Counted from the first letter of the stretch, positions 6,586 to 18,766 are shown. The stretch: 64,000 bases of DNA from an uncultured bacterium (GCA_948433295.1 CAOJDT010000001.1:1869-65868); one strand, 5' to 3'. Notes: a model not told the origin generated them from the letters alone. A program made the numbers and translations.

Positions 6586-7536
6586 TTACTTACAAGTTTT
6601 CTTTCCGTCCCAAGCAAGGTCATTACAGTGAAGATATTCCATATTCTCATTATAAATAACCCACGCGGCACATCCATAACCGTCACCCCCGTTAATACAA
6701 TCCTTATCAAAGGTACGTTCATTAGCGTTCACATTTTGGCTACCTAGTGGACGAATTTTATCTCTATAAATGTTAAAATAAAAAACATCTTTTCCTACCG
6801 TGTTAGGTAAAGCCTGAGGTCCGTTAATATCAATCGAAAAATCACCACAAGCAGATTGTATACAATTAATATTAGATATCCATCCTCCCATCAAAACGCT
6901 TCCATCTTTCAATTTTATAAAAGAGGAGCTCCTTTTATTTCTATTTGTACCGTTTAAAAAATATTGCCCCGAAATACTGCACTTTCCAGCGGTGTCGTCA
7001 ATACATACAGAAGTAGTGCTCATAAAAGGAGTTAATTTTGACCAAAATATTTCAAAATTCTTGTACGCATCAGCAGAAAGCCCTTGCTCATCCGTATCGT
7101 CGAATGAGGAATTCTTATCAAATCCCCAGTAATTAATATCGCCGTATTCGTTACGTGCCATCAAGTATGCTTGACTTACTGTGCTATAAGCTTTTTTTAG
7201 TTTTGTTACCGTAACTTTTTCCTGATGTTTTTGAATCAGCGTCGGCATAGTCATTGCCGCTACTATTCCGATTATACCGAGAGTGATTAAGACTTCGGCT
7301 AAAGTAAAGGCGGCTTTTGCATTGTCATTCTGAAACGTAGACTGTTCTGTCCTACATGAATTGTTACCGTTCAGAATCTCCGTTTCATTCTCGTTTGCGT
7401 TTTTCAATTTCCAAAAGACATTAGTCGACAAAAACGCTTTCAAATTTTTCGTGTAGTTTGTAATTATTCGTGCAAAGTGCTTTCTACTTTTTTGTTCCAG
7501 AGTAGTGCTGCGACTCAGTCGCCCCCCCCCCCGCAA
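6586..7536 (-). CDS. Prepilin-type N-terminal cleavage/methylation domain protein (pseudopilin paralog 2)
   Basis: KAA|FTLAEVLITLGIIGIVAAMTMPTLIQKH motif and IDINGPQALPNTVGKDVFYF core. The ORF as tracked begins at TTG 7536. The SD-proximal ATG at 7561 is out of frame across the G11 tract. Confidence 0.8.
   Translation of the reverse strand: MRGGGRLSRSTTLEQKSRKHFARIITNYTKNLKAFLSTNVFWKLKNANENETEILNGNNSCRTEQSTFQNDNAKAAFTLAEVLITLGIIGIVAAMTMPTLIQKHQEKVTVTKLKKAYSTVSQAYLMARNEYGDINYWGFDKNSSFDDTDEQGLSADAYKNFEIFWSKLTPFMSTTSVCIDDTAGKCSISGQYFLNGTNRNKRSSSFIKLKDGSVLMGGWISNINCIQSACGDFSIDINGPQALPNTVGKDVFYFNIYRDKIRPLGSQNVNANERTFDKDCINGGDGYGCAAWVIYNENMEYLHCNDLAWDGKKTCK
7522..7532 (-). repeat. Homopolymeric G11 tract at the 5' end of pseudopilin 2
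   Basis: 11 consecutive C on the + strand. It begins 29 nt after the A of ATG 7561. Confidence 0.95.
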
Positions 7537-7703
7537 ATGCAGTCATATCAAGCTTTTTCATACTCTTTCCTTTCTATTAATATAATAGTATGGCTAAGCC
7601 ACCTCTCAATGATTATAAACTATTTTTCAAATATTTTCAAGACCTCACACAACAAGACCGTTAAAATAACGGTCTTGTGTCGGTTTATTTAATGTATGCC
7701 AAA

Positions 7704-17920: not shown

Positions 17921-18766
17921 TTACCAAGGGTAATCTTTTTTTAACGTCCAACCGTCAATCATTATTACAGCACCGCAGTATCCGCCTGTACCGGTCTCAC
18001 AGGCAAATGAAGGCACATCAATGTTGCTTCCAATACCGGACATTAAAGCTTCACGTGACGGAGCAGGATGACAATCTAAACCTTTCGGGAAAAAACCGAG
18101 TTTTTTAATACATTCCGTAGCAGTTGGTCGTCCTGCATCTCCCCAACTCATAAGAAACGGAAAGATATCTTTACCTATAGTGTTAGGCTTTTTAGGTCCG
18201 TTAATATCTATATAAAACCATCCGCCATTTCCAGTTCTATGAAGCCAATAATAAACAGAATACCCAGAAGATGTTAGAAAAGACATACCTTTAACATTAA
18301 TTGAAGTTTCAGTACCTTTTATTGTATAAATCTTATCTGTCCAACATTCTGAAGAAGATGGAAGGCATTTTTTTACAGTTTTAATATTCGGAAACATATA
18401 ATTTTCACCAAAGTATATGTCTCTTTCATCAGCATCATCAATATTTCTAAAATCCCAAGAATCCAGAGTTCCGTAGGAACTTTCGGAAATCCTGATTGCT
18501 TGATTTATTTCAGAATAAGCTTTTTTTAATTGCGTAAGTGTTTGTTGTTTTTGATATTTAGCAATTAACGACGGCATTGTCATTGCAGCCACTATTCCGA
18601 TTATGCCCAAGGTAATCAATACCTCTGCCAGAGTAAAGGCTTTTTTACGAAATAGGTTACAATGAGTTACGCCCGTAACATCTGATGTTATATTAAATGC
18701 ATTTATATTATGATGTAAAAATTTAAACGGAGAGCTTAAAAGACCTGCCCCCCCCCCCGAAAACAA
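17921..18766 (-). CDS. Prepilin-type N-terminal cleavage/methylation domain protein (pseudopilin paralog 3)
   Basis: KKA|FTLAEVLITLGIIGIVAAMTMPSLIAKY, YIDINGPKKPNTIGKDIFPF and the C-terminal DGWTLKKDYPW. The tracked start is TTG 18766. The SD-proximal ATG 18788 is out of frame across the G11 tract. Confidence 0.8.
   Translation of the reverse strand: MFSGGGAGLLSSPFKFLHHNINAFNITSDVTGVTHCNLFRKKAFTLAEVLITLGIIGIVAAMTMPSLIAKYQKQQTLTQLKKAYSEINQAIRISESSYGTLDSWDFRNIDDADERDIYFGENYMFPNIKTVKKCLPSSSECWTDKIYTIKGTETSINVKGMSFLTSSGYSVYYWLHRTGNGGWFYIDINGPKKPNTIGKDIFPFLMSWGDAGRPTATECIKKLGFFPKGLDCHPAPSREALMSGIGSNIDVPSFACETGTGGYCGAVIMIDGWTLKKDYPW
18748..18758 (-). repeat. Homopolymeric G11 tract at the 5' end of pseudopilin 3
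   Basis: 11 consecutive C on the + strand. It begins 30 nt after the A of ATG 18788. Confidence 0.95.

Follow-up and report, generated by a model that had tools for sequence, protein, structure and literature searches.

In Neisseria gonorrhoeae and Neisseria meningitidis, the genes pilC1 and pilC2 are said to carry a poly-G tract in the region coding for the signal peptide, a finding attributed to Jonsson, Nyberg and Normark in 1991. The present analysis concerns a comparable arrangement in a stretch of 64,000 nucleotides from an uncultured bacterium (GCA_948433295.1 CAOJDT010000001.1:1869-65868; the whole of this stretch is referred to as the window), where a tract of 11 guanines (positions 7522-7532, minus strand) lies between a start codon and a type IV pilin-like gene. 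The window belongs to a 1.96-Mb metagenome-assembled genome (MAG) of Candidatus Gastranaerophilales, hereafter G000 (36% GC, 131 contigs, 99.4% complete); the Gastranaerophilales are uncultured bacteria that commonly inhabit the gut of humans and animals. As in pilC, the G-run lies a few codons into a pilus-related gene, within a part of the product that is cleaved off, and its length would set the ON or OFF frame by slippage. However, PilC is a tip adhesin/assembly factor with a Sec signal and not a prepilin, the Neisseria genomes harbor one or two loci of this kind whereas about 100 are found in one gene family of G000, and the leader of the latter, made of shuffled modules, is up to 150 amino acids (aa) long. 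To our knowledge, no strong preference for one OFF register has been described for pilC.

Two other systems are close to the one described here. In Bifidobacterium breve UCC2003, the sortase-dependent pilus genes bbr_0113 and bbr_1889 contain G10-G12 between a signal-peptide open reading frame (ORF) and the pilin body; most of a cultured population is OFF, and in the mouse gut the in-frame length becomes more frequent (PMC9187656). In both cases a gut commensal has an intragenic G-tract dividing a short leader ORF from the pilin body; in contrast, the B. breve pili are sortase (LPXTG) pili encoded by one or two loci per genome and those considered here are type IV pilin-like, and heterogeneity was measured in B. 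breve by maximum-depth sequencing, whereas here it is deduced from assemblies. The genome of Campylobacter jejuni NCTC11168 contains 29 poly-G/C tracts (PMC4965091). Many G/C tracts of 8-13 nucleotides (nt), the small AT-rich genome of a gut bacterium and a potential for combinatorial surface variation are shared features; in Campylobacter the tracts are located in unrelated genes (capsule, lipooligosaccharide, flagellar glycosylation, restriction enzymes), whereas here one portable 5' cassette is placed on paralogous pilins, is about three times as numerous, and stands in one register in 87% of the loci. A literature search disclosed no paper on poly-G tracts or phase variation in Melainabacteria/Gastranaerophilales, nor on DUF6613. 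The cassette is ordinary in principle and extraordinary in copy number; the bias of the tracts towards one OFF register and the existence of a split form of the cassette are new here.

Anatomy of the locus and its probable function as a switch

The tract at 7522-7532 is probably a slipped-strand (replication-slippage) phase-variation switch that has been assembled in the OFF state. The features of the locus and its two sister tracts, in window coordinates, are the following.

7612-7640, minus strand: candidate sigma-70-type promoter TTGAAA-17-TATAAT, with 11/12 matches to the consensus (consensus scan); putative function
7563-7573, minus strand: purine-rich Shine-Dalgarno (SD) region AGGAAAGAG upstream of the ATG; the paralogs have GGAGG at identical spacing
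7559-7561, minus strand: start codon ATG for both the prepilin and the 25-codon ORF; the equivalent ATG of in-frame paralogs opens ORFs of 246-328 codons
7484-7561, minus strand: leader ORF as assembled, MKKLDMTAFAGGGATESQHYSGTKK, 25 codons plus TAG; product of the OFF state
7522-7532, minus strand: G11 tract, i.e., the in-frame length plus one G, beginning after 29 nt from the ATG
7510-7522, minus strand: hairpin GCGAC-TGA-GTCGC adjoining the tract, 13 nt, 3' of G11
7499-7504, minus strand: TACTCT, proposed "anti-SD", complement of AGAGTA at 7561-7566; chance-level
7312-7542, minus strand: long leader read in the pilin frame, which is open from 7542; ON-form length about 84 aa, with predicted removal at the prepilin site
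7294-7311, minus strand: prepilin cleavage/methylation motif A/FTLAE, the slash marking the predicted cut (Pfam N_methyl)
6586-7308, minus strand: mature pilin-like protein (N-terminal helix and DUF6613 globular part) with its stop codon; PF07963 and PF20318
3758-3768, minus strand: sister G11 tract of pseudopilin 1, in a register identical to that of 7522-7532
18748-18758, minus strand: sister G11 tract of pseudopilin 3, whose length differs among assemblies (11, 12, 13)

This anatomy and the reading frames are established directly. The minus strand reads as the initial annotation had described it, with the ATG at 7561, 29 nt, G11 and a 25-codon ORF running to TAG. When tract lengths were simulated, 10 or 13 G fused ATG 7561 to the pilin-like ORF (6586-7536, 316 codons in the ORF listing), giving proteins of 324 or 325 aa, and 12 G led to the frame GGC GAC TGA directly after the tract, so that both the fusion and the immediate stop claimed for these lengths were recovered. 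The arrangement is that of a contingency locus, with G11 placed 29 nt after the ATG and a one-unit change switching between 324/325 aa and 25 aa. One G fewer or two more likewise open a full-length ORF at all three poly-G loci of the window, and TTGAAA-N17-TATAAT is also found upstream of the other two. At this locus no start codon in the pilin frame lies near the cleavage motif and ATG 7561 is the sole SD-preceded start upstream of it; therefore, the pilin can only come from ATG 7561. The downstream TTG (7536), which the initial annotation had named as a possible start independent of the tract, was rejected as a general alternative, since no SD precedes it and, at 36 of 53 loci, the interval from the upstream stop to the tract lacks any ATG, GTG or TTG in the pilin frame. 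Between promoter and SD, a terminator scan picked out a small GC hairpin in the 5' untranslated region, GTGGC-TTA-GCCAT (7590-7602, minus strand), with a T-rich stretch after it.

According to the mechanism proposed here, the strong promoter and the SD would drive translation from ATG 7561, and the G-run would be read as Gly codons within the long prepilin leader. If the tract had 10 or 13 G, translation would carry on into the type IV pilin-like protein, which the prepilin peptidase of the genome would cut at A/FTLAE; with the assembled 11 G, translation would stop after 25 codons, leaving the gene OFF. With about 100 such cassettes per genome in this genus, any one cell would display a shifting selection from a very large set of pilins. 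We infer, in this scheme, slippage at 7522-7532, processing of the pilin, its display on the surface and a biological pay-off.

The evidence for slippage comes from the sister loci. At the tract 18748-18758, near-identical assemblies differ in length with identical flanks (G11 in the window, G12 in ERZ14864661 and G13, which is in frame, in ERZ15043455), and the G13 product of this locus (289 aa) has been recorded as a called protein. Among ten further loci, one (C4:4742) has the protein corresponding to one G fewer, i.e., an in-frame allele, recorded in another assembly. In-frame paralogs are also directly observed, at 5 of the 54 scorable loci of G000 and at 4 of 55 in its relatives; in these, the frame runs from the cassette ATG through three or four glycines (GGG codons) into the pilin. 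Variability of 7522-7532 itself is deduced by extension from these loci. Exact look-ups of the in-frame proteins (G10, G13) of locus 7561 showed that they are not on record, and an exact-flank pattern search for the locus in metagenomes gave no match.

The protein encoded downstream is pilin-like. The cleavage motif region A/FTLAEVLITLGIIGIVAAM scores 24.3 bits against Pfam N_methyl (cut-off 21.2), and F77, L79, A80 and E81 are invariant across 70 homologues; more than 7,700 homologues of the locus pilin, with N_methyl and DUF6613, were found. An AlphaFold model based on the 70 homologues (pLDDT 82.9) places a 53-residue N-terminal helix at 79-131, followed by a beta-rich alpha/beta head, its confidence being low over the leader of about 75 residues. 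A Foldseek search of the DUF6613 head against the PDB gave no match at E<=0.001 (the gonococcal pilin 1ay2 reached merely E=1.1); no solved structure is therefore close to the head domain. G000 also encodes a prepilin peptidase (Peptidase_A24, C35:14530-14922, 36.8 bits) and PilB/PilT-type T2SSE ATPases, one of them at E=1e-127. Relatives free of the tract have leaders of the MKKAFTLAE type. As for the long leaders, a paralog of G000 (C105:177 onward, protein P0063) shares with window positions 7320-7420 the leader ...KNANENE...TEILN..SC.TEQSTFQNDNAKA/AFTLAE, and carries in it an in-frame insert, QLCHPELDSGSLK, which corresponds to a small palindromic repeat element in its usual translation; such inserts are tolerated in the leaders provided that the frame stays open.

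The tract family, its register bias and its split form

The window contains 12 overlapping hits for runs of at least 8 G (the three G11 tracts), versus 0.11 expected, and G000 as a whole about 106 G/C tracts of 8-16 nt with a mode of 11, where the behaviour of A/T runs would lead one to expect two G/C runs of at least seven. Most of these tracts are located 3' of an SD-preceded start codon, with a spacing that is most often 29 nt, and 5' of an ORF with [GA]FTLAE. The coding strand carries G wherever the sequence downstream of the tract is present; the possibility of poly-C on the coding strand was rejected, this being confined to contig-end artefacts. About 100 poly-G cassettes of G000 head pilin-like genes (N_methyl and DUF6613), out of about 132 pilin-like genes that account for roughly 5% of the genome length; some 35-40 of the latter have ordinary short leaders and no tract. 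The design is thus directly seen to be family-wide, and the richness in tracts recurs in all of the 12 congeners searched, almost none being found in the other families searched within the order. At about 100 loci the pilin ORFs are open for 200-370 codons; therefore, they must be expressed often enough for selection.

As many as 38 tracts are located at contig edges, which is at most an indirect sign of mixed tract lengths within the population. Moreover, runs of 49-53 G end contigs beside pilin 5' ends (e.g., C8:39983-40034, C40:15848-15900, C66:10415-10466, C71:9522-9574 and C86:1-53). They are read as C on the coding strand, look like a loss of signal (dark cycles called G in two-colour sequencing) as the reads enter the tract, and mark about 10 further switch loci left uncrossed by the assembler. 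A G10 tract is also present on the minus strand at G000 C53:11393-11402, in the middle of a non-pilin protein of about 580 aa with AEDARK repeats; it is flanked by open frames of 268 and 312 codons whose offset corresponds to one G too many, and this gene is a candidate for a phase-variable gene outside the pilins.

In order to call the register of each locus, tract lengths L-1, L and L+1 were simulated, and the length that yields a long ORF from an SD-preceded start was retained. The 109 scorable loci, from 10 genomes, are distributed as follows.

One G too many: 95/109 loci
In frame: 9/109 loci
One G too few: 5/109 loci

The two OFF registers differ with a binomial p of about 1e-22, a value overstated because the paralogs are related; when the loci are grouped into 61 crude sequence families, 51 have one G too many, 7 are in frame and 3 have one too few. 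The bias is present for tracts of 9, 10, 11 and 12 G, and the length d upstream of the tract compensates for that of the tract, so that d+L is 40 or 45: the main cassette type is 29 nt + G11 in G000 and 30 nt + G10 in another genome (G006), and the f=1 types are 36+9, 35+10, 34+11 and 33+12, each summing to 45. Therefore, it is the frame that is kept and not the length. In the register with one G too many, the leader ORF has 15 codons at 38 loci and 17 at 32, with the pattern M-x9-11-GGG-xx-stop; over all 109 loci, a stop lies 5-6 nt past the run in 63, and the base following the run is C in 99.

The hairpin adjoining the tract is a further conserved element. The initial annotation had reported it (7522-7510) together with the hexamers AGAGTA (7566-7561) and TACTCT (7504-7499), all of which exist with the letters and coordinates given; for the hairpin, the paralogs reveal a conservation above chance, with compensatory changes, in one leader type. 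A hairpin abutting the run is found at 22 of the 26 loci of this leader type, defined only by the downstream motif ...CTGGAR/CTGACAC, with 14 distinct stems, and at 4 of the 83 other loci. In an alignment of 21 paralogs, whose rows were partly chosen by the hairpin, so that the motif-defined count is the cleaner test, 90.5% of the cells pair versus 65.5% in shuffles (0/500 shuffles as high), and 28 cells are altered on both sides versus 8 expected, slid controls giving 20-37%. The hairpin module is translated in two frames (f=0, RLSRS..., and f=1, TAEPQ...) and is therefore conserved as nucleic acid. A pause of the ribosome, a pause of replication, and membership in the palindromic building modules of the leaders are all candidates for its role. 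The TGA of its loop is the leader-ORF stop in one subfamily and the third-frame stop in the other (7510-7522 and 25 paralogous sites of G000).

In some loci the cassette is separated from the pilin gene. This split form was found in G003 (6 loci), G006 (L067 and L079), G010 (L036) and G000 (C21:3511), and its order is promoter, SD, ATG, 29/30 nt and Gn, short ORF, intrinsic terminator, and then a pilin gene with its own SD and ATG and a normal MKKxN/AFTLAE leader. The loci delimited are the following.

G000 C21:3421-3752: split locus
L044:1270-1600 and L044:2378-2708: split loci
L036:1412-1743: split locus
L067:1485-1814: split locus
L079:1494-1823: split locus

Two frames of the split loci stop within 15 nt past the tract, and the remaining one reaches or crosses the terminator stem; this suggests that the split form might act as a frame-dependent, phase-variable attenuator. 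The split form does show the cassette to be a portable unit.

Weighing slippage against other explanations

Some observations weigh against a slippage switch. The tract 7522-7532 is G11 in all three assemblies that include it (the window, ERZ14864661 and ERZ15043455), and some of the length differences between assemblies could be consensus noise, the two comparison assemblies having a coverage of 5-6x only. The ON-form leader has about 84 aa at this locus (5-150 aa in the family as a whole), against about 5-30 aa for the short leader typical of a type IV pilin, and greatly exceeds in length the leaders of the type IV pilins that have been studied. Finally, slippage alone should leave loci in both OFF registers, and the split observed is 95/9/5.

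The last point calls for an explanation of its own, and simple selection for OFF fails to predict it. Two simple causes were also discarded: a mutational attractor at 11 G, since the G9, G10 and G12 subfamilies are in the same register with a d+L of 40 or 45, and a preference for the register with the earliest stop, which holds for just 70 of the 95 loci with one G too many. Our leading conjecture is that the OFF registers leak to different extents on the fully slippery G-run and that selection keeps the tight one; a -1 slip, for example, would rescue the register with one G too few and not the one with one too many. Alternatively, the +1 register itself may be decoded at a low rate.

Taken further, the latter idea becomes a rival of the phase-variation switch, in which recoding is programmed and one G too many is the working state: the ribosome would slip by +1 (or -2) on (GGG)3, or the RNA polymerase would drop one G by slippage, pilin would be produced in this way at a fixed low level, and length changes in the DNA would be noise or a secondary dial. 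It is consistent with the register being the same at 95 of 109 loci whatever the tract length (51, 7 and 3 in the families), and with the roughly symmetric deviations from the modal length (9 shorter, 5 longer). Also in its favour, GGG is the rarest Gly codon (7.6% of glycine codons), and ARAGORN found only tRNA-Gly(GCC) and tRNA-Gly(UCC), and no tRNA-Gly(CCC), in a genome that is 99.4% complete; the lack of any tRNA of unusual anticodon in the ARAGORN output speaks against such recoding and led to the rejection of quadruplet reading or of an odd tRNA, and a translation in which GGGG stands for glycine misread the run twice. The run is SD-like, the zero-frame stop follows it by 5-6 nt at 63 of 109 loci, and the whole loosely recalls the prfB site, i.e., the +1 frameshift of RF2, where an SD-like G-rich stretch likewise lies a few nucleotides before the zero-frame stop, the ORF is reached by a one-base skip and the out-of-frame arrangement is conserved. 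However, in prfB CUU re-pairs in +1 directly before the stop, whereas here the codon before the stop cannot, and re-pairing is possible only inside the G-run; moreover, the hypermutable run is here the sole slippery element and in-frame alleles exist, the likeness being no more than a resemblance. The conserved hairpin that adjoins the run in the leader type of locus 7561 speaks for recoding; its lack at 79 of the 83 other loci speaks against it.

Against recoding stands the existence of nine in-frame loci and of in-frame alleles in other samples of the same strain, which do not agree with an obligatory shift. In addition, among the tracts located in non-pilin ORFs the in-frame and +1 classes are of similar size (about 5 each, next to about 2 that lack one G), so that G-runs are not generally decoded with a shift; these mixed registers argue against a genome-wide +1 decoding rule. 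A hypermutable 11-nt run would also be a costly design for a frameshift site. On balance, programmed recoding as the working state is unlikely, and it is equally doubtful that about 100 pilin genes are weakly and simultaneously expressed from strong promoters by one-base slips on (GGG)3, with in-frame slippage of the DNA as a boost.

The split form raises another possibility, namely, that the cassette encodes a regulatory leader peptide, in which the place where the ribosome stops on the short ORF, or its stalling on the rare GGG codons, would govern the transcription or translation of what lies downstream, as an attenuator does, with the tract picking one of three stop positions. The presence, in the split form, of a terminator followed by a pilin gene with its own start fits this scheme, as do the single frame of three that reads up to or through the terminator stem in each split locus and the stereotyped length of the leader ORF (15 or 17 codons). 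At locus 7561, however, the pilin lacks a start codon of its own and no stop interrupts the frame between tract and pilin, so that tract length acts directly on the reading frame; no terminator was found in the leader of this locus, an Rfam search of the leader gave no match, and the split form is possibly a by-product of recombination. A regulatory leader peptide is thus a quite improbable explanation of the tract.

An artefact or a decayed gene was judged very improbable. In the first case, a systematic over-call by one G would hide genes most of which are truly in frame; in the second, the copy would be a frameshifted pseudogene. A systematic over-call would indeed yield a uniform +1 excess, G-tracts clearly disturb the sequencing here (the contig ends with 49-53 G beside pilin 5' ends, the 38 tracts at contig edges), and the B. 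breve study cautions on annotated G-tract lengths (PMC9187656). Yet the excess is also found at G9 and G10, lengths that short reads call well, and in 10 assemblies of different projects, one of which has contigs of more than 160 kb; in the same assemblies, pilin loci with G9-G11 and tracts of G10-G13 located in other genes are also found in frame. The over-call was judged unlikely on the basis of the G9 bias, the ten assemblies and the in-frame G9-G13 tracts alongside. As for decay, all 316 codons of the pilin ORF are intact, and two other assemblies have it in identical or near-identical form.

Lastly, the initial annotation had seen in the locus an SD-ATG-29 nt-G11-anti-SD module, of which the part concerning the frame set by the tract stands and the part concerning the anti-SD finds no support, either at the locus or in the family. 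The riboregulator that it implies, where TACTCT would pair with AGAGTA and hide the SD-ATG junction, is extremely improbable, for although the two hexamers are exact complements and some leader types (locus 1, C61:6295) show a high predicted pairing of the SD with a CU-rich stretch after the tract, a complement of at least 6 nt occurs in 9.5% of cases when the 60 nt past the tract are shuffled, the SD is predicted to pair with the sequence downstream with a probability no higher than in shuffles at locus 7561 (0.14 vs 0.14) or over 54 loci (0.31 vs 0.35; Wilcoxon p=0.2), and the SD/TACTCT pairing is missing from the predicted centroid structure of a leader whose fold z-score is -1.38.

Implications for the Gastranaerophilales

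Since poly-G switches lie at the pilins, MAGs of this genus fragment at pilin genes. The recurrence of a register one G above the in-frame length is not predicted by standard slippage models, and raises the question of whether the OFF registers are functionally different or whether a frameshift is decoded; recoding, if true, would amount to genome-wide programmed frameshifting in one bacterial gene family. If the tracts are phase-variation switches, about 100 individually switched pilins would be among the largest single-family contingency repertoires known, and this in a commensal and not in a pathogen. Such a repertoire predicts an extreme variety of surfaces from cell to cell, which would be relevant to phage, IgA and attachment.

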